Shown here: piece after piece, positions 1 through 18,642 of the stretch
How positions within the stretch are numbered: the first letter of the stretch is position 1
Layout of the letters: each line of letters begins with the position of its first letter
NCBI GenBank assembly: GCA_013115125.1
Contig: JABANN010000081.1
Coordinates: forward strand, 58,609-78,608
DNA from: Perkinsus olseni
Lineage: Eukaryota
Length of the DNA: 20,000 nt
Direction: 5' to 3'
Program-made: the position numbers and the translations under genes
The notes under the pieces: generated by a model
The model's database searches: none
Told to the model about the DNA's origin: nothing
What the model saw: only the letters and a program-made list of their open reading frames with translations

Positions 1-77
1 CTCACTAGGGAGCACAACTCCTAATCATCACAAGATAAACTCTCTTGATACATCGGGAAATGCCAGATAAGTGAGCG

Positions 78-99
78 CTATTAACTCAGTATTACTGAG
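78..99. repeat. 22-bp triple inverted-repeat lesion (degenerate)
   Basis: c-tattaa-c-tcagta-t-tactga-g; intact paralog has only ctactgag (+14 nt). Confidence 0.8.
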
Positions 100-122
100 C
101 ATTATAAATTACTTCTCAGTCA

Positions 123-144
123 CTCGAGCTGCTCGACTCGAGCA
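123..144. repeat. 22-bp triple inverted-repeat lesion
   Basis: c-tcgagc-t-gctcga-c-tcgagc-a; intact paralog has ctcgagga (+14 nt). Confidence 0.85.
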
Positions 145-171
145 GTACCAGACTACACGCCCCCTGAATGA

Positions 172-193
172 CTCCGCACTGCGGAATCCGCAG
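172..193. repeat. 22-bp triple inverted-repeat lesion
   Basis: c-tccgca-c-tgcgga-a-tccgca-g; intact paralog has ttccgcag (+14 nt). Confidence 0.9.
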
Positions 194-452
194 CACAGCG
201 ACCTGCAGGCTCCTTATCACAAAATCGCCCCACAAAGTCACCGTCCCAACAAGGAATCTCAACCCCGTATGTTGGCTCCGTCCTCAATTGCCATATCCCG
301 CTACCTCCCTACGGGGTGGGGACTCCATCGGAGTCAGTTGGAGGCACTCCAACTGAACGCTTCCGCTTCGTTCATCCGTGACAGCTTCTCTCGTAGAGCA
401 GCGAATACTGTTACCACCGTGCATCTCAAAATCTACTGTGGACACGGTCCAT

Positions 453-3802: not shown

Positions 3803-3840
3803 GACTCACGGTGAGCCACCCACTACTAGTGAGTCACTAG
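3803..3840. repeat. Two overlapping 22-bp triple inverted-repeat lesions
   Basis: g-actcac-g-gtgagc-c-acccac-t (3803-3824) and c-ccacta-c-tagtga-g-tcacta-g (3819-3840). Confidence 0.75.
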
Positions 3841-3933
3841 ATAACACAAATCCTGATCATTATTAGATGAAATCTATTAATCTGTCGAAAAATGCCAAAT
3901 AAGTGAGCGCTACTGAGCATTATCAATTACTAC

Positions 3934-5388
3934 TCAGTCACTCGAGGAGTACCAGACTACACGCCCTCTGCTGAATGATTCCGCAGCACAGCGACCTGTT
4001 GGCCCCTCATCGCAGAATGACTCCACAAAGCCGCCGTCCCAACAAGGAATCTCCACCCCAGATGTTGGCTCCGTCCTCAACTGCCATATCCGCCCTCCAG
4101 CTTCGAGCAGCCTTCTAAATCCAACCCACAATTCATGTTCGTGTGCCACGCCGGTGCCATGCACTGGGCAGCGGAACTCTACACCGCCATCCCAGAGCAG
4201 GCGGATTCTTCCACTGAAGAGGCCGTGCATGAATGCTGCTCTTTCCGGTGTAACTGGAGTGTACCCCAAGCCGAGGCGGGTAATATTCGGACAGGTCTCA
4301 AGTAGACTGAAGAGCATATCCTCGGTAATGTTCCATTCACCCAGACCCAATACACTCAAAGGAGCCGGGCTGATGGTCTTGAGACCGTCGAAAAAGGACA
4401 TAAGATACTCATCGCTTGATCCCGTGGGTCCAGAGAAGTCAACGCATCGCATGCGGGGATTCGATCCCACCCAGCGGAACATATCATTGACTTCCTCGAC
4501 GGGAGCTTCGAAATATGGGCGGATCATTTCCAGGTTGCAGAGGTTGGCACAAGAAGTTAATCCATTGTAAAAGAAGCCGGCTCTGATGATGCCTCCCGAG
4601 AGACAGAGGACATTTAGGCTTGAAGGAAACGGATAGACTATCACCCCGTGATAATCCGAAGTTGCCGTCGATGATAAGTGCAACTCTTTCAGAATACAGC
4701 ACCTCTCGATTGACTTGCGTAACTGTTCGATGTCGGTCGACCGTGTATTCTTCTCAAAGTGAACGCTCAAGCCCAACTCCACCAGCGGCTCATGGGCTTG
4801 GCCACAGACAACCTTCAGGCGAGCCAGAGGAGCTTTAGTTCTCTCGAGGCGAAGGACTCTCCACGGCTTCAATCTTGCTCCACCATCCAACCAACCCTTA
4901 CCGGTGACGGAGAGCCACACCACCAACAGCTCTGTGAGGTTCGGCAGACTGCCACAGCACAGCGACAGATCATCATCTTTGATACCGGGATGGTACGACA
5001 AGTCGAGTCGGACCAATTTCGGCAAGCTGTCCCACAGTCGCCCATTCAGGCGGAGACAGCGTGTCGCCAAAGTCCTCAAATTGGGAGCAGCACCATTCTC
5101 GAGAGCCTCTTGGAGTTCATCCCCGTCGTCCTCCGTCGGTGCGTTAAGCTCCCCCGCGTACCTTCCATACGTCTTCATGATGGCACTCAAGCGTTTCTGC
5201 CGAGGCATCGTTATCTTCAATATCCCATAGCCAGTCCTAGCTCCCTCATGAAGTAAATAGTCCAGCACAGCCCTTCTCCAACTGCTGCACACTGACGCCA
5301 TTCGGACAGCGCTGGTGACATCAGAGATGAGCCAAGGGAGGATGTGCTCGAGGATAAGGCCATCAATGGAAGGGGAGATTGGAAGCAT
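3934..5388 (-). CDS. F-box/leucine-rich-repeat protein, 484 aa
   Basis: Uninterrupted ORF with an N-terminal F-box-like segment (LILEHILPWL...RMASVCSSWRRA) followed by LRR motifs (LPKLVRLDLSYHPGIKDDDL, CPNITRLGLGYT). Confidence 0.8.
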   Translation of the reverse strand: MLPISPSIDGLILEHILPWLISDVTSAVRMASVCSSWRRAVLDYLLHEGARTGYGILKITMPRQKRLSAIMKTYGRYAGELNAPTEDDGDELQEALENGAAPNLRTLATRCLRLNGRLWDSLPKLVRLDLSYHPGIKDDDLSLCCGSLPNLTELLVVWLSVTGKGWLDGGARLKPWRVLRLERTKAPLARLKVVCGQAHEPLVELGLSVHFEKNTRSTDIEQLRKSIERCCILKELHLSSTATSDYHGVIVYPFPSSLNVLCLSGGIIRAGFFYNGLTSCANLCNLEMIRPYFEAPVEEVNDMFRWVGSNPRMRCVDFSGPTGSSDEYLMSFFDGLKTISPAPLSVLGLGEWNITEDMLFSLLETCPNITRLGLGYTPVTPERAAFMHGLFSGRIRLLWDGGVEFRCPVHGTGVAHEHELWVGFRRLLEAGGRIWQLRTEPTSGVEIPCWDGGFVESFCDEGPTGRCAAESFSRGRVVWYSSSD

Positions 5389-5973
5389 CTAGAAGATACT
5401 GAAGGCAGACTCAGGACGATTTCAACAGCTGCTTGCAGCTACATGTTCGACCATGAGAGCTTCTCACTGATAAGTATCGAGCTACTAAGGCCGACGAAGA
5501 AGTGGTTCAATAGAGGCAAAATATTCGCGTGTCGAACGCCGGTTCCGACTCAGTTAGACTCTTGCCGATGTGCTTGGTCGGGGGCGCTATGTAGCATTGA
5601 TGAATCATCGATGATGATGAGCTTGGTGTCGACCTCCCCCCGACCATTAGCCATCGAGAGCCCTCATCATCTCGCACTTTTCACGGGCAGGCTCACGAAC
5701 GATTCACACTATGGGATGTCCGCGACATATGAATGCCGTTCTCTTCATTAACTGCGATAGCCACAAGCTGAATAGCGAAAGTCAAATTCCTCCCTCGACC
5801 ACCTCATGATTAACGAAACTCTGTCCAACTCCAGGGAGACATTCAGCATACGAGGTTCTCCTTTGGACCCTCGAAACTCTTATAAATCAAGGAACTTGAA
5901 ATAACTGATGATGTGCTACAGCAGTCCTTGCATGAGGCACACAAGCAACTTGTGCTCTCAAGAGGTGCAGGAG

Positions 5974-8628
5974 CTATCCCTGACTCGCTGAGTGACTCAG
6001 TGCTCTCGATCTCGGATGCGAGATTGAAGGGGACGTTGACCGAGGGATCATTTCAACAGGCACATGGCATCCGAACAGCCTCGTCTCCAAGACAGTCCAC
6101 TGCTCAGAAAACAACTTCAAAGCATACATCAGGAAGAATGCTCTCGCTCCGCCAGAGTCGAGCTTCTCGCTCAGAGGCTCGCTCCAATCCTTCGCCTCAT
6201 CAAGATCTGCTTTCCGAGCAGCAAAGAACGCGTCAAAGCATTTCTGGACAGCCACATTGACGTCCTCGTTGAATGTTATGTGGCGAGACCTCGTATCATT
6301 TCTGATCTCATCAACAACACGCATTCTCGCTAACGTCAACGCAGCTTCCATTTCCTTCAACGGCGGGAGAACTTTCGATAGCAAACCATCTTCTCTATCC
6401 TTGGGAGACAAAGCAGTCTTCACTAGCGCGTTGTGCAGAATTATAGCGCATCTATTCATCTTGCTGATCTCTACCTCGGAGTGAATCATGCTCTCCACCA
6501 GGCGAGGAGTGATGCCGACAGGACCATACACCAACACTTCAGCTCGACTGTCGTTCAGAAGCGATAACCGTTCTCCCAGCAGCTTGAAACTGAGAGCGCT
6601 AAACTCGGCGCGATTATCTTCCACTTCGCCCTCAGGGCGAGTGTAGACGTCAATTAGCTGAGCCACCGCCTTCTCGACCTCTCTGGTGGAGTTCTCAATC
6701 GCGAATGCTGATGATAACCGTAAGCGGTAGGATGCATATGACGGGACAACCACACAAGAGAATATACTCCCAAAGATGACACCGCCCAGGGTCAAAGCGG
6801 ACCGCCACGCTGAGGCGATGAGCATATCCTCGAGCTCATCGTCGTACATTGTGAAAGAAAGGCCCATGCAAACGACGGTCCAGGTGAGAAACGTCACAAG
6901 AGAGGCATAACCAATCGCCTCACTAGACAGCTGAATCAGCTTACAGAAGAAGGATATAATGAGCATCTCGACCACCATAGACGATACACTGTGAGCATTG
7001 ACCCATAAGCAGAGCATGCCGATCATACATCCGAGAACAGTACCGATAAATCGGTGTGTGCCACGGACTAAGGTCGCGCCCGCGGTGGGCAGCGAGGCTA
7101 CTTGTACGCCCAAGATGCACCACAAGGATCGAGCTTTCAATAATGGTAAGTATAGGGCACCCGCACGTAACAGTAGTGAGCCAACCGTGATTGATAGCGT
7201 ATACCGCACCGAGAACTTCATCTTATGCCATATGCTGGGGTCCTCCTCCAGACCAATAAAGAAAGGCTTCTTCCACCAGTCATTGAGGAAGTCTGCGAGC
7301 TCGTAGATAGGGCCAAACAGCAGCTCCATAATAGGAAGCTGAAAAGAATCAAACATCCAAAGCAGCTCGAACGTAGCAGACTGATGGGCAGAGAACTCGG
7401 ATAATGATGTCGAGGAGAGCTCAACGCTGCGTGGTACGCTCATCGGCTCACCCTCTCTTTCTTCCTCCATTGAGATCGCAGCTTCGTGAGAGCATCGTGA
7501 AAGGCTTGCACCTCTGATGCGAAGTACAGCATATTCCCTATACCAAATCTAAACCGCATCAGCTCATCATAGTCCGAAAAACTGCTGCCTAGTAGTTCTT
7601 CGCATGCCAGTTGATTCTTCAAAACTTTCTCGAAACATTTCCGTGAGAGATCCCCAACATTGTCATTCTCCACAGTAGCCGGAGTGTTGTTGTCAAAGCT
7701 GCCTCTGAGCATAACCGCGGCCTCTGACCTCAAGTCCAGAATATCTACGGCAAGCGGACGCCAGAGCAGATCGATTAGAGTATCGTCGAACGGACCACCG
7801 GAGATCGCCTCCTTTATAGAGATTAGGAATCCAATCATACGCCACATCGTATTCTTCAACTCAGGTGGTATGGGGAGAGCTGACATCTCACGACATTGCT
7901 CAACCAGCTGAGCATACGTTTGATCAATAAGAGCAGGATGCTTGTTAGCAGACGTGAAGAAGGTACAAAATACATCGTAAACCTCGGCCACAGTCGCAGC
8001 GAAAGTTTCAAGTCTCGAAGGGCCGCCTCTCGGAAGAGCATTGAATGCACTCAAAATTCGCATAATCACCATCGCCACAACGGCCCCGTACGTACTCGCA
8101 GTTGTAAAAACGAGCCCATCCAAATAGGGGTGAAAAACATAGAAGGCCACAGGAGAACAGTTCATGATCAGTGCCGCTTCAGCTAACCACAGCTCTCTCA
8201 GTTTGCACGGCGAGGCTCGGTGACCCATACAAATAAACAACGTAAATGGTATATTCAGAACAATACTCCACAGCCTATGATACTCATTAGCCGGGAGCAG
8301 GGCTGCGATTATCGTGTGGACGAGAGCACCTAGGCCGTAACCCAGCCACGCACCACAGATGACTTTTAGAGAGAATCGACGACAGGGTTCATAGCTGAGT
8401 TGAACGGCGAAGACGGCCCAGATGGGGGCAATCGCCTGAACAGCGAGCATCAAGTCTACGGTAGTGTCATGTCATACTCACCAAGTAGTATTCATACCAA
8501 GGGTGATGGTACGACATAACAATGAAGGGGATGGCGGCTATGCCACATACAATCGACGCCAATATCGCGCAGTGGACAACCGATGAGGGGATGGTTGCTG
8601 GACGAGTTACTTGGTGACGCTTAAGCAT
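5974..8628 (-). CDS. ALMT/FUSC (aromatic acid exporter-like) multi-pass membrane protein, ~831 aa, 3 exons
   Basis: Exons 8482-8628, 7452-8435 and 5974-7338 joined by phase-0 GT-AG introns (46 and 113 nt). Motif WCILGVQVASLPTAGATLVRGTHRFIGTVLG is typical of ALMT/FUSC. Two hydrophobic clusters. Confidence 0.8.
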
Positions 8629-9112
8629 ACTCTGGCAAGTGGAAAGGAGCTCTCTACGGGAATACTACACCGAAAGCTCGAGCCGCTGTGCTCGTCGAAC
8701 ACACGTAAGACAACAAGCTGATCATTATATCACCAAACTAGAAGCGCAACACGGTGACGGCTTTAATGAGGAAGCTCTCTGCACTCATGTCACAGCACAG
8801 CTGCATATCAACGATCAGTAGCAGCGGTCTCGAGGAGCTGCCTCCGATCACCTAAGGATGAAATACCGTACGCGCCGGTAAACTTCAGCTGGCAGTAAGG
8901 GGCAGTTGGCCCGGGCCCACCGATGGCCGAGTTTTGGCCGAACCTAGGGGTGTCCCGAGCCGTCATTCCCTGGGCACTACCTGAACGCGTTCCGTCAACC
9001 AGGATGATTCAGGATTTCGATGACCCGCTTATCATATTTTGATGCTCATAGGTCTCTCGTTATTCATTCTCAGTTCCTACAAAAGGGAAAGTTCGACCCC
9101 TCGACACTCGAG

Positions 9113-9134
9113 CTTTAACGGTTGAAGTTCAACC
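9113..9134. repeat. 22-bp triple inverted-repeat lesion
   Basis: c-tttaac-g-gttgaa-g-ttcaac-c. Confidence 0.85.
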
Positions 9135-9220
9135 ACAACGCGAGATGGACGCTACGCTGTGGAAGTGCAAGCACGAAGCACGGGAATGGCCATGACGCAG
9201 ATGAGACCTACAAACCAACA

Positions 9221-9293
9221 GCCTCGGTAGCTCAGTCGGTAGAGCGCGTGCCTTTTAAGCCCGTGGTCGTGGGTTCGAGCCCCGCCCGAGGTG
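9221..9293 (+). tRNA. tRNA-Lys (anticodon TTT)
   Basis: Acceptor GCCTCGG/CCGAGGT, D-arm GCTC..GAGC, loop CTTTTAA, T-arm GTGGG-TTCGAGC-CCCGC. One T:C mismatch in the anticodon stem. Confidence 0.88.
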
Positions 9294-9429
9294 GATGACC
9301 TATAACTCAATTGAGTAAGTCTATGAAGATGTACTTGACGTACTCCTCCGCCTCATCGCCCCCGCGCAACACTCTCCCACATCAGCTCCTCTCGGACCGC
9401 TGGACTGGGGCGGGTTGCTTCTTTGGTGA

Positions 9430-10100
9430 GACTTTTCGCGTACCTCTACCCAAGCCTACTGCCTGATAGTGAGCAACGCTCCCGAAACTCGACTTCTCGA
9501 CTGGTCGTACCCACCTACAGTCGCGCGGATTCAGTGCAGGTTTGTCCCGCGGCGCGAGACCGCGACGCCGCCTCCGCGCGTCTCCAAATTTCCACTAACA
9601 ATGAGACTCTCAACTTCCTTCGCCGTTCCTCCGAACTTCTGTCGAGTTCATTGGCAATGAATCATTGTCAATGCATGATTTCACACTCACTCTCCGGTGT
9701 CAATCGTTCCAAGAGAGGTTACCCTACTAAGGTATCATACCCTTGCGGTACGCTCCCGCTTAGTAGGCGTCAGAGCAAGCAGACTGAGCACCAATACTCT
9801 GTTACGACTTCTGTTTCTTCCTCTCCCCCTCTCTCAAAACCCAATCCAACTCCTATTCCAGCACAGCTAACTCCGTCTCTCGCCCCTCAATCGTAGTCGG
9901 CTCGCTACGGTGACCTCCTCTCTGCTGTGCCGCTCGGAGCGGTCCGCTCTCAACTGGCATGATAGACTCGACACGCTTATTAAAACAAGCTTAAGCTCAG
10001 CAGTCTCTAACGGCCTGACTACCGGCCTAATCGACATGATCAGATCAGATGGGCTCTGCCCAACGCGCGCTGGCAGTAACCCCTTTTCTGCCACTCGATT
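9430..10100 (+). mobile_element. Possible highly decayed 3' end of a non-LTR retrotransposon ORF
   Basis: Broken frames give ISHSLSGVN...YPCG...QTEH / ILC, loosely resembling a LINE C-terminal CCHC knuckle. Weak. Confidence 0.2.
9647..9674. repeat. Period-7 alternating inverted-repeat lesion (four arms)
   Basis: t-tcattg-g-caatga-a-tcattg-t-caatgc. Confidence 0.8.
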
Positions 10101-10676
10101 CCGAAAGTCTCGCGCTCCTTCCACACATTCCTCCCCTCAGCTGTTCAATTCCGTCTCACACCCCACTGCAATTTCGCCGCCGCCGGCTCCCCCGCCTCTC
10201 TCACCGCGATGCAAAATAGCTACGGCGACAGATCGGAAGTGCCACAGTTTCACATCGCGGACCGGGTTGGTCGTGCTTGGCTCAGGGATAATGGCGATAT
10301 CATAAGTGAGCCTTCTCTATTTTCACACGACGAATTTTGCTCCACTGCGACCGTTCATACCGCTTGAAAGAAGACCCCCCCGTGCAGAATAGAAATCATA
10401 ATTCTGCCCTACCCTGAAGGGGCCCCCGTCACGGGGGAATTTCCCCCGGCATAAACGGTGCTTGAACCACCAACAACGCACCAAGCGCTCGAATTCCGCA
10501 ACTCCATTTTGGCTCGCCCTTTTTCCGCGACCGCGAAAGACCACCGCGACCACAATCCTCGGACTAGCCGACTATGAATGTACCACTAGTACCTCTGAGC
10601 CGTTAAACAAGGTCGTTCATCACACCACATGCACTCACGAAATTCCTTTCAGGATACTGTACCACCAACTCCCAAA

Positions 10677-11213
10677 ATGACTATCCTCTCTCTCCTCATC
10701 GCCGTCCTGACCGGAGTTTACGGCGGCATCTTCGACTCTACCTGGGGACGAGCAGTATTGGGCTTCTTTGAGCGGTACTAGTACCACTACCACAGCTCCA
10801 AGTACAAGTACTTCCTCTACTACGCCGGCCACTACGCCTGAGTCGGTGCTCCAGCAGCTCCTCGCCCTAAACATACCGGAGTATCGAGGTCTCCCTACTA
10901 CGGTTGAGCCGATATCGGTGCAAGAGAGGTTGCAGGGTTTGGATATACCTCCGTACCCCAGTATCCCACAGCGGCTCCTACCGGGTAGGACCCACCCAGT
11001 CGACCTCTACCCCGATTGCGACGAAGTCGGTGCTGCAGCAGGTGGCTGAGCTGGATATCCCCCTTCGTGAGGGCGTATCGTCACTCGCGACTACCAACAC
11101 AAGCGCTCCTCCACTAACACACCTCCGGGATGTTAAGCGTACGAGCTTTACCGACGGGATATCGGACCACAACCTGGATCGTAGCCGGTGTAGCGTCAGT
11201 GAGAGTCTTCTGG
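10677..11213 (+). pseudogene. Frameshifted paralog of the Thr-rich surface protein
   Basis: MTILSLLIAVLTGVYGGIF / TLPGDEQYWAS...ESVLQQLLALNIP...LDIP / TKSVLQQVAELDIP... / WIVAGVASVRVF, split by three frameshifts (~10735, ~10965-10995, ~11165). Flanks are also homologous to 1340-2970. Confidence 0.85.
10976..10997. repeat. 22-bp triple inverted-repeat lesion inside the pseudogene
   Basis: t-cctacc-g-ggtagg-a-cccacc-c. Confidence 0.85.
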
Positions 11214-11327
11214 GGACGAACTGAAAATGGATGGCCAGCAACCCCACGCGGCTGCCGGCGACTGTACCATTACTAATTTGTGATGAACACCGCATGATTG
11301 ATATATACTTTGTTGTCTATAGAAACG

Positions 11328-11349
11328 ATGCTGAGTCAGCATTGCTGAC
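11328..11349. repeat. 22-bp triple inverted-repeat lesion (perfect)
   Basis: a-tgctga-g-tcagca-t-tgctga-c; paralog at ~2148 has a single tgctga. Confidence 0.9.
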
Positions 11350-11921
11350 TGAAGTCAAGCTGCTGTTGCGTTGTAGTTGGATAGCGAGCGGCTTTGATAA
11401 TCTCAGAGAATCACCACATCAAGTCGAGCTAGAGCCCCTGGCCTAGAGGGCAGTCGAGTGTGTGCAACTTGCGTAGTTCGCGCAAGGTGCAGTGGCGCGC
11501 ACCCTAAATCAAGTCCACCATCACGGAAAAACGTTATGCTGACCAATGATCTTCGAACTCGACGGTCATCCGCGACATTAAAGGAGTAACAATGAAGCCC
11601 TATGGTAGTTTTGAAAGAACTTGGTTTTCTGAAATCGCAGATCCCAACACAACGCCAAGTTGGGAACTAGTCATTCGACGGGAAAATCGACTCTTCCCGA
11701 GCGCCCCATGCATAACAACAACATCACGAGAGCAAAGATCGAGGAGAACAAGCAGGCTGAGAACAATAAAAAGTTAGCATGATATTGAACCTTCCCTGCA
11801 TACTCCAGCTGCCCTTTACAGCGAACTGTGTATAGAGGAGCTCCCTCGGCCAGCATACTCGAACTCAGTAGCCCACGCATGGATCGAAAACATGAGGATA
11901 GAAGTCGGCGGTGCATGGCAA

Positions 11922-17910: not shown

Positions 17911-18366
17911 GAGTAAGAGTGAAACGGAGGCAAGCTGTGTCCACCCCCTCCCCGCGCCCTTCAAAAGGTCGCTTTGAAATTGACCTGAACGTTCGTCAAT
18001 GATCCTTTGAACGCAACTGGACGAGCACGAGGGGTGTGTCCAAAAATCCGAAGGTGGTTCCCAGGCACTTCGTCTACCATCCGTAAGGGAGGCTACACTG
18101 GCGGTATGTAGGATCCACACCCCACCCGTTCCCTGTTGAACTGAGCCTTCTGGAGCACCGGAGTGACCAATCCGAAACACGGGAGCGGTGTAGTGTGATA
18201 GAGTATGATGTTGTTGTCGAACAACAGGTGTTCCCAGGAACGTCTTCTACCACGTTCAATATCATGATCCGGGGCCGACGATCCAGAGAGGGCTCGGTGA
18301 GACTTCAGAACAGCTTCGTCGGTTAGTGCTGAACGACACCATGACAGACAGGGTGTTCCAAATATT

Positions 18367-18407
18367 AGCATTCGGATTCAGTCAGGGCCTGACTGAATCC
18401 GAATGCT
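18367..18407. repeat. Perfect 20-bp inverted repeat with 1-nt centre
   Basis: agcattcggattcagtcagg-g-cctgactgaatccgaatgct. Confidence 0.95.
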
Positions 18408-18642
18408 GATTCTCCGCGTGACACCATTCGAGTGATGTGCAGTGCCGGCAGCCGACCCAAACTACTCCCCGTGGTCCACGAACTTCTCGCAGCGATGAGA
18501 ATTTTGATTCGGCCCGGTGCCGCTGATGCAAGTCAATGACTGATAATACTGGTAACTCGAGGACTGTATCAAGTACAACAAACAGTACATCATGAACATC
18601 ATTTTATAAACACTATTGTATCACGCATGGAATCAGTCAGGT

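Follow-up and report, generated by a model that had tools for sequence, protein, structure and literature searches.

Clustered 14-nt insertions in a Perkinsus olseni gene remnant as probable hAT-type excision footprints

Excised DNA transposons normally leave traces that are too varied to be recognised without an element-filled allele for comparison. Among the closest described systems, Ac/Ds footprints contain palindromes centred on the complement of the base adjoining the element (PMC5873905), and their repair proceeds through opened hairpins that are joined at microhomologies (PMC1978519). In hAT transposition the first cut falls on the non-transferred strand and the flank is sealed as a hairpin (PMC6900584), a 1-nt offset has been described for Kat1 (PMC4763223), and the reported target patterns are nTnnnnAn for Hermes (PMC10368747) and nnnTAnnn for Buster (PMC3499496). 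Here we analyse a window of 20,000 nucleotides of Perkinsus olseni DNA, in whose first 200 bases three 14-nt insertions lie close together. We conclude that they are very probably excision footprints of a hAT-type cut-and-paste transposon at 8-bp sites.

Three insertions in a gene remnant and their polarity

The first 301 bases of the window duplicate positions 3833-4092. The features that matter for the comparison are listed below, with T denoting the 8-bp site of each scar.

1-301, minus strand: copy A, a 3' remnant holding about the last 55 codons, the stop codon and downstream DNA of a duplicate of the 3934-5388 gene
78-99, no strand: scar 1, T = CTACTGAG; empty site at 3910-3917; older, with three later substitutions; just beyond the former stop codon
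123-144, no strand: scar 2, T = CTCGAGCA; empty site at 3941-3948, one base different; in former coding sequence
172-193, no strand: scar 3, T = TTCCGCAG; empty site at 3979-3986; in former coding sequence
3910-3986: part of the intact paralog with its three empty 8-bp sites (3910-3917, 3941-3948 and 3979-3986)
3934-5388, minus strand: the paralog gene, an intact 484-aa open reading frame (ORF) with a weak F-box-like match
3803-3840: two nested scars in the paralog (3803-3824 and 3819-3840), equivalent to a 28-nt gap in copy A
1-8: empty site in copy A (CTCACTAG) for the paralog scar at 3819-3840, which has 1 mismatch in 22

A single 1700-nt contig from run X10 spans the 484-aa frame and shows 0 differences. 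The frame's F-box-like match falls below the cut-off (E 0.0067; 16.6 bits, cut-off 24.3), and its cluster relatives carry the name F-box domain-containing proteins, Perkinsus olseni. Homology between copy A and the paralog ends at 298-301 and in the other direction reaches to about 90 nt before window base 1. Over 343 aligned columns the pair differs by 57 substitutions, against six scar events, in a region that was picked for its scar density.

We aligned copy A (1-300) to 3833-4095 with MAFFT and with a separate global aligner. Both produced clean 14-nt gaps after positions 78 and 121, and both produced a third gap of 10-11 nt. The third gap is shorter because copy A also lacks 3 nt immediately before scar 3, so that the net difference of 11 is a gain of 14 minus a loss of 3; the spacing near site 3 in an outgroup family member, on contig C2514, equals that of the paralog and assigns the loss to copy A. 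The initial annotation had claimed three separate 14-nt gains, and these are borne out by the two aligners once the third is read in this way. The pairwise check that it had proposed, 1-299 against 3833-4092, is in substance this comparison, and the paralog coordinates given there as 3919-3976 should read 3910-3986. It was also right that two of the three gains lie in former coding sequence, because sites 2 and 3 fall in the last codons of the ORF at 3934-5388 (minus strand) and site 1 just beyond its stop.

The short state had been taken as ancestral, and the outgroup agrees, having the short form at sites 1 and 3. Its sequence around site 2 has diverged too far and includes extra bases of its own, so this site is polarised only by the paralog's open frame. 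As an intact reference the paralog holds in so far as its 484-aa ORF is open, but it is not pristine, since the 28 nt of its two scars at 3803-3840 are missing from copy A. Polarisation is reciprocal: each of the two copies has scars missing from the other. Copy A also holds a +11 scar variant, in a CTG-repeat site some 45 nt before window base 1, as if annealing had slipped by one repeat unit.

There is no sequence common to the three copy A inserts. Each rewrites its own 8-bp site, from 8 nt to 22 nt, following the model T(1-7)+revcomp(T)+T(2-8). Against this model scar 1 has 3 mismatches in 22 and scar 3 has 1, while scar 2 has 4 when the model is built on the paralog 8-mer. Three of those four are one G/C difference repeated through all three repeats, leaving a single mismatch when scar 2 is compared with its own T, as read in all three repeats. 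The left junction base fits the model in all three scars and the right one in one of three (site 3 only), the right junction base being T1 itself rather than its complement in scar 2 and a third base in scar 1. In scar 3, the T1 predicted by the junction base is still present in the paralog. The exact 6-1-6-1-6 arrangement has a probability of 6e-8 per position, and the window contains 9 exact scars of this form versus 0.0 in 5 shuffles, which bears out the earlier claim that the motifs are insertions and not chance palindromes. In each insertion the local 8-mer has served as template, and the geometry is that of hAT excision; the initial annotation gave no mechanism. Among the best rows listed of the run comparisons, no element-filled allele was found at sites 1-3.

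Several other parts of the window are described here in their own right. Positions 1377-2069 and about 10470-11280 are paralogous genes with a hydrophobic start and end, resembling those of secreted or surface proteins, and a search with the 1377-2069 gene returned no Pfam match; together with the pair 527-620/10065-10161, they suggest an old tandem segmental duplication in which copy A's side lost its middle. Positions 743-1213, about 5531-5601 and 9217-9293 are multi-copy repeats, with a summed depth of up to 8,663 in run X7, and the matching X7 contig lacks 743-1213. A gene of the ALMT/FUSC transporter family occupies 5974-8453 (minus strand), and contigs of three runs skip its segments 7339-7451 and 8435-8480, which have intron-type ends. 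At 455-512, a 17-nt direct repeat flanks a 25-nt spacer. Elsewhere in the genome, C3135 carries a tandem array of a 21-nt unit at 22402-22678.

Scar form across the genome, clustering and strain differences

We scanned a non-random sample of 527,621 bases of the same genome, in 23 stretches. The core pattern M6-1-rcM6-1-M6 occurred exactly 136 times, compared with 0.0 in three local shuffles; among the other geometries whose core was at least 6, none rose above 2 occurrences in the same bases. Exact matches to the full model numbered 108 for a site of 8 bp, 1 for 7 bp and 0 each for 9, 10 and 11 bp; two near-exact matches at 9 bp both came from one compound site. On each side, the junction base complemented T's end base in 121 of 136 scars; it was identical to that base in 3 and 4. 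Scar cores differ from site to site, each copying its own flank, and a mobile 14-nt element or palindromic repeat family was rejected because the copies have no sequence in common. In 36 paralog alignments, 5 of the 10 gaps of at least 10 nt were 14 nt long, and all five fit the scar model (two are from copy A). The canonical product was counted 102 times versus 0 by chance, and all shorter footprint classes together lay about 45 above chance, in a comparison where short classical footprints are harder to detect and precise excision is invisible. Plain 8-bp tandem duplications were rejected as a class (14 versus 5.2, with no spike over 9- and 10-bp units), and the 101 apparent ones of an earlier count were discarded as low-complexity repeats.

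The sites show a target bias. The pattern nTnnnnAn was present in T in 43 of 254 scars (17%), against 15.5 expected, and T at position 2 or A at position 7 in 200 of 508 (P=2e-13). Buster-type nnnTAnnn occurred in 18 of 254, with no excess. Moreover, 26 paired-hairpin scars keep both arms, 22 of them with both centres complementary, and none was found in 5 shuffles; their arms reach 26 and 29 nt, and a few of the 26 are neighbouring canonical scars rather than single events. Single palindromes with arms of at least 16 and one central base numbered 17 in the sample, where none had a 0- or 2-base centre. Within the window, a palindrome with 23-nt arms and one central base at 18364-18410 is a long-armed hairpin scar whose second half is not clear.

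These observations bear on replication template switching, a known source of inverted triplications, in which a polymerase track running forward, back on the other strand and forward again would yield micro inverted triplications. The scar product is formally just that. Such switching has no ruler for 8 bp, however: variable lengths would be expected, and the 7-, 9-, 10- and 11-bp forms are nearly absent. Nor does it predict the target bias, two independently long arms or the half-scars at hAT ends described below. Template switching is already strongly disfavoured, and we regard it as extremely improbable.

Scar density varies about tenfold among contigs, from 47 exact scars in 78.6 kb on the window's contig to 7 in 110 kb of C1. 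Extrapolation to the genome gives about 4,800 exact scars and about 9,800 with at most one mismatch, based on 331,280 non-random bases that were neither chosen for this window nor adjoining a hAT match. The initial annotation saw strong local clustering in copy A and offered local hopping or freedom from selection as its cause. Local hopping is not needed, because 0.2-1.9 windows of 116 bp with at least three scars are expected on this contig alone at its scar density, and the excess of close neighbours is weak (10 versus 5.0 at 8-30 nt, P=0.037; P=0.06-0.10 in three wider bins). Freedom from selection is the part that gains support: copy A is a 3' remnant, and none of the window's 18 scars falls within either of the two transcribed ORF blocks, so that scars appear to survive where constraint has been lost. 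ORFs of at least 900 nt make up 13% of the sequence and contain 2 of 254 scars, which adds weak support, as the comparison is partly circular: a scar breaks an ORF.

Two sites distinguish the window from run X7, a divergent sample.

11328-11349: exact scar, missing (14 nt) from run X7
11831-11838: empty site in the window, where run X7 has its own 14-nt scar

These are the two 14-nt indels among the 12 of 129 rows listed for X7, and the gains are reciprocal. Runs X11 and X12 have no cover at 1-868 and are uninformative there.

Assembly or library artefacts come into question at this point, since fold-back chimeras produce palindromes and 78-193 is not among the independent-run matches listed. 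The scars at 9647, 9929 and 11328, though, lie within X10 contigs with 0 differences, and X7 has a scar of its own. Furthermore, scars decay by substitutions that fall about equally on each of the three repeats (40/37/39). We consider an artefactual origin next to impossible.

hAT elements, repair genes and the proposed excision pathway

The hAT dimerisation domain was matched at 11 of the 20 places scored in this genome. A complete hAT copy of 4,094 bp, flanked by an exact 8-bp duplication, lies on contig C293 (L059:328-4437). Its transposase is divided into three or more open pieces, through breakage or splicing, and the element itself contains scars of the same type. A second hAT family, about 3.0 kb long, has a terminal repeat of 16 bp and an open frame of 819 aa. 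Its middle part is collapsed into C521, and two left and two right ends lie on other contigs. One copy of this family has ACTGTAGC on both sides. The other is bounded by the two half-scars of GGAATGTA, with the left half on the left side and the right half on the right side (C1438 end, C521, C3003 start). Its left flank reads GGAATGT, the complement of A, an 8-nt inverted arm and then the element end; its right flank reads element end, a 6-nt inverted arm, the complement of G and GAATGTA. This copy is young, its ends being 99-100% like the intact copy, and it lacks 4 and 2-3 terminal bases. As it is split over contigs, the two ends were paired by elimination and by their common 8-mer. The simplest reading is an excised element that was rejoined into its own opened donor site; an element that inserted into an older scar and later suffered damage at its ends could also account for it.

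The three 8-mers at real elements all fall short of a full nTnnnnAn match. The 527,621 bases contain one 8-bp-flanked element, on a stretch fetched for its hAT match, and no non-autonomous 8-bp-flanked element was found in this sample. An 11-nt end pattern of the C293 family was rejected (36 matches versus 9 in the control, with only 3 element ends among 30 viewed). The window itself contains an element of about 600 bp at 2260-2854, with 16-nt terminal inverted repeats and many internal short repeats; run X7 has 47 other bases in place of 2187-2857. Its ends resemble Tc1/mariner-type repeats, and it was rejected as the scar maker because there is no 8-bp duplication at its ends.

Most MULE families make target duplications of at least 9 bp. 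A MULE with an 8-bp duplication would make flank hairpins by chemistry that is otherwise the same, and MULE transposases are encoded here (18 matches among 34 scored, several in long open frames), although no terminal repeat or duplication was readable at MULE ends in the four MULE contigs examined. Muta1 does form hairpins on flanking DNA, but more than 90% of its excisions in yeast are precise (PMC5499845). A 9-11-bp version of the scar has no exact match, the two near matches at 9 bp being the one compound site; the target bias is the hAT one, and so is the element between half-scars. A MULE source is, in our judgement, very improbable.

Scarring might also proceed without lasting insertion, through a transposase-derived host nuclease like yeast Kat1 or through abortive touch-and-go events. 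Thousands of scars against few elements would suit such a process, as would a sample that lacks a non-autonomous 8-bp-flanked element, and domesticated hAT proteins are described as producing hairpin-capped breaks (PMC4763223). Both scar halves, however, carry the whole T, so T must have been duplicated before the hairpins formed, and a prior duplication requires strand transfer and gap filling. Real elements with 8-bp duplications exist, one of them between half-scars, and under conservative hopping each jump adds one scar while the copy number stays the same. Element-free scarring therefore seems to us improbable.

Under the preferred hAT reading, an element would insert at an 8-bp site T and duplicate it, as observed for two hAT families here. 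On excision the transposase would nick one base into each flank and close a flank hairpin, a step modelled on known chemistry with the geometry read in the scars; the left end would then run T1-7 followed by the complement of T8, and the right end the complement of T1 followed by T2-8. A host nuclease would open the two hairpins at a distance from the tip of at least 8 and up to about 30 nt, mostly leaving 3' overhangs, as long-armed scars and junction bases suggest. Since both flanks held T, the overhangs would be complementary over revcomp(T); they could anneal there, have their flaps trimmed and be ligated to give T(1-7)+rc(T)+T(2-8), a gain of 14 nt. Such annealing would let many opening positions, at least 8 nt from the tip, converge on one +14 product. 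It also predicts a class in which annealing failed and both arms were kept, and 26 scars of this kind were found. In the dead copy A, the three scars would have accumulated separately. A +14 insertion shifts the reading frame, so that scars survive in non-coding DNA and dead gene copies.

The genome encodes an SNM1/Artemis-family (DRMBL) domain and a Ku domain (2 matches, one locus). A lack of classical end joining was considered as the cause of scar uniformity and rejected, because a Ku-domain locus is present.

Several points weigh against the hAT reading, among them the lack of a filled allele at sites 1-3, the incomplete nTnnnnAn match at real elements and the presence of Ku, all given above. 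Scars (about 5,000-10,000) far outnumber elements, and MULE transposases, which also form flank hairpins, are encoded in this genome. Excision in model hosts leaves footprints that are short and varied (PMC5873905, PMC3499496). A bolder and rather unlikely proposal is that repair of hairpin breaks in Perkinsus is near-deterministic, with distant opening, 8-nt annealing and flap trimming, and that the +14 scars come from a few constantly re-hopping hAT copies or from a host-captured transposase without lasting elements. If this were true, the scar would mark a mutational process that is constantly at work in this lineage and can be counted, disabling gene copies through frameshifts and providing dates for strain splits.

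Significance and comparison with known systems

Because the +14 trace identifies itself, past jumps can be counted, target preference read and ages ranked from one assembly. The scars show how an early-branching alveolate repairs hairpin ends, provide near homoplasy-free markers between strains of a shellfish parasite and add a mutation type of weight in the non-coding DNA of this genome; a link between the signature and an element comes from the hAT copy that lies between two half-scars. Flank-hairpin chemistry and the centre-base rule are already known. In literature listings and the openings of abstracts, we found no description of a dominant +14 footprint kept by the thousand, a form that footprint tables in supplements may have.

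V(D)J coding joints with P nucleotides are similar to the scars in that hairpin ends are opened off-centre and joined. They differ in having no target duplication for annealing, no one-base offset and heterogeneous products. Open-and-shut and hybrid joints are known in V(D)J recombination, and the half-scar hAT copy resembles them as an element rejoined to its own opened flanks. The Hermes nick has a one-base offset. Hermes agrees with the Perkinsus sites in cutting the non-transferred strand first, in its flank hairpin and 8-bp duplication and in the pattern nTnnnnAn (PMC10368747, PMC6900584), a bias that is partial in Perkinsus (17% full match). Muta1 and other MULEs have flank hairpins and long duplications in common with the system described here; their repair is mostly precise in yeast (PMC5499845), and Perkinsus is without a 9-bp scar class.

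Ac/Ds, as described in plants, S. cerevisiae and C. albicans (PMC5873905, PMC1978519), has the 8-bp duplication, the palindromic P-insertions and the hairpin opening with microhomology joining, and long arms occur there too, up to 20 nt in yeast. Its footprints are nevertheless short and heterogeneous, with 28 types in 128 clones in C. albicans, whereas in Perkinsus one product dominates, with both centres and the whole inverted 8-mer. The Perkinsus scars are a natural, genome-wide record, while the Ac/Ds data come from an assay.
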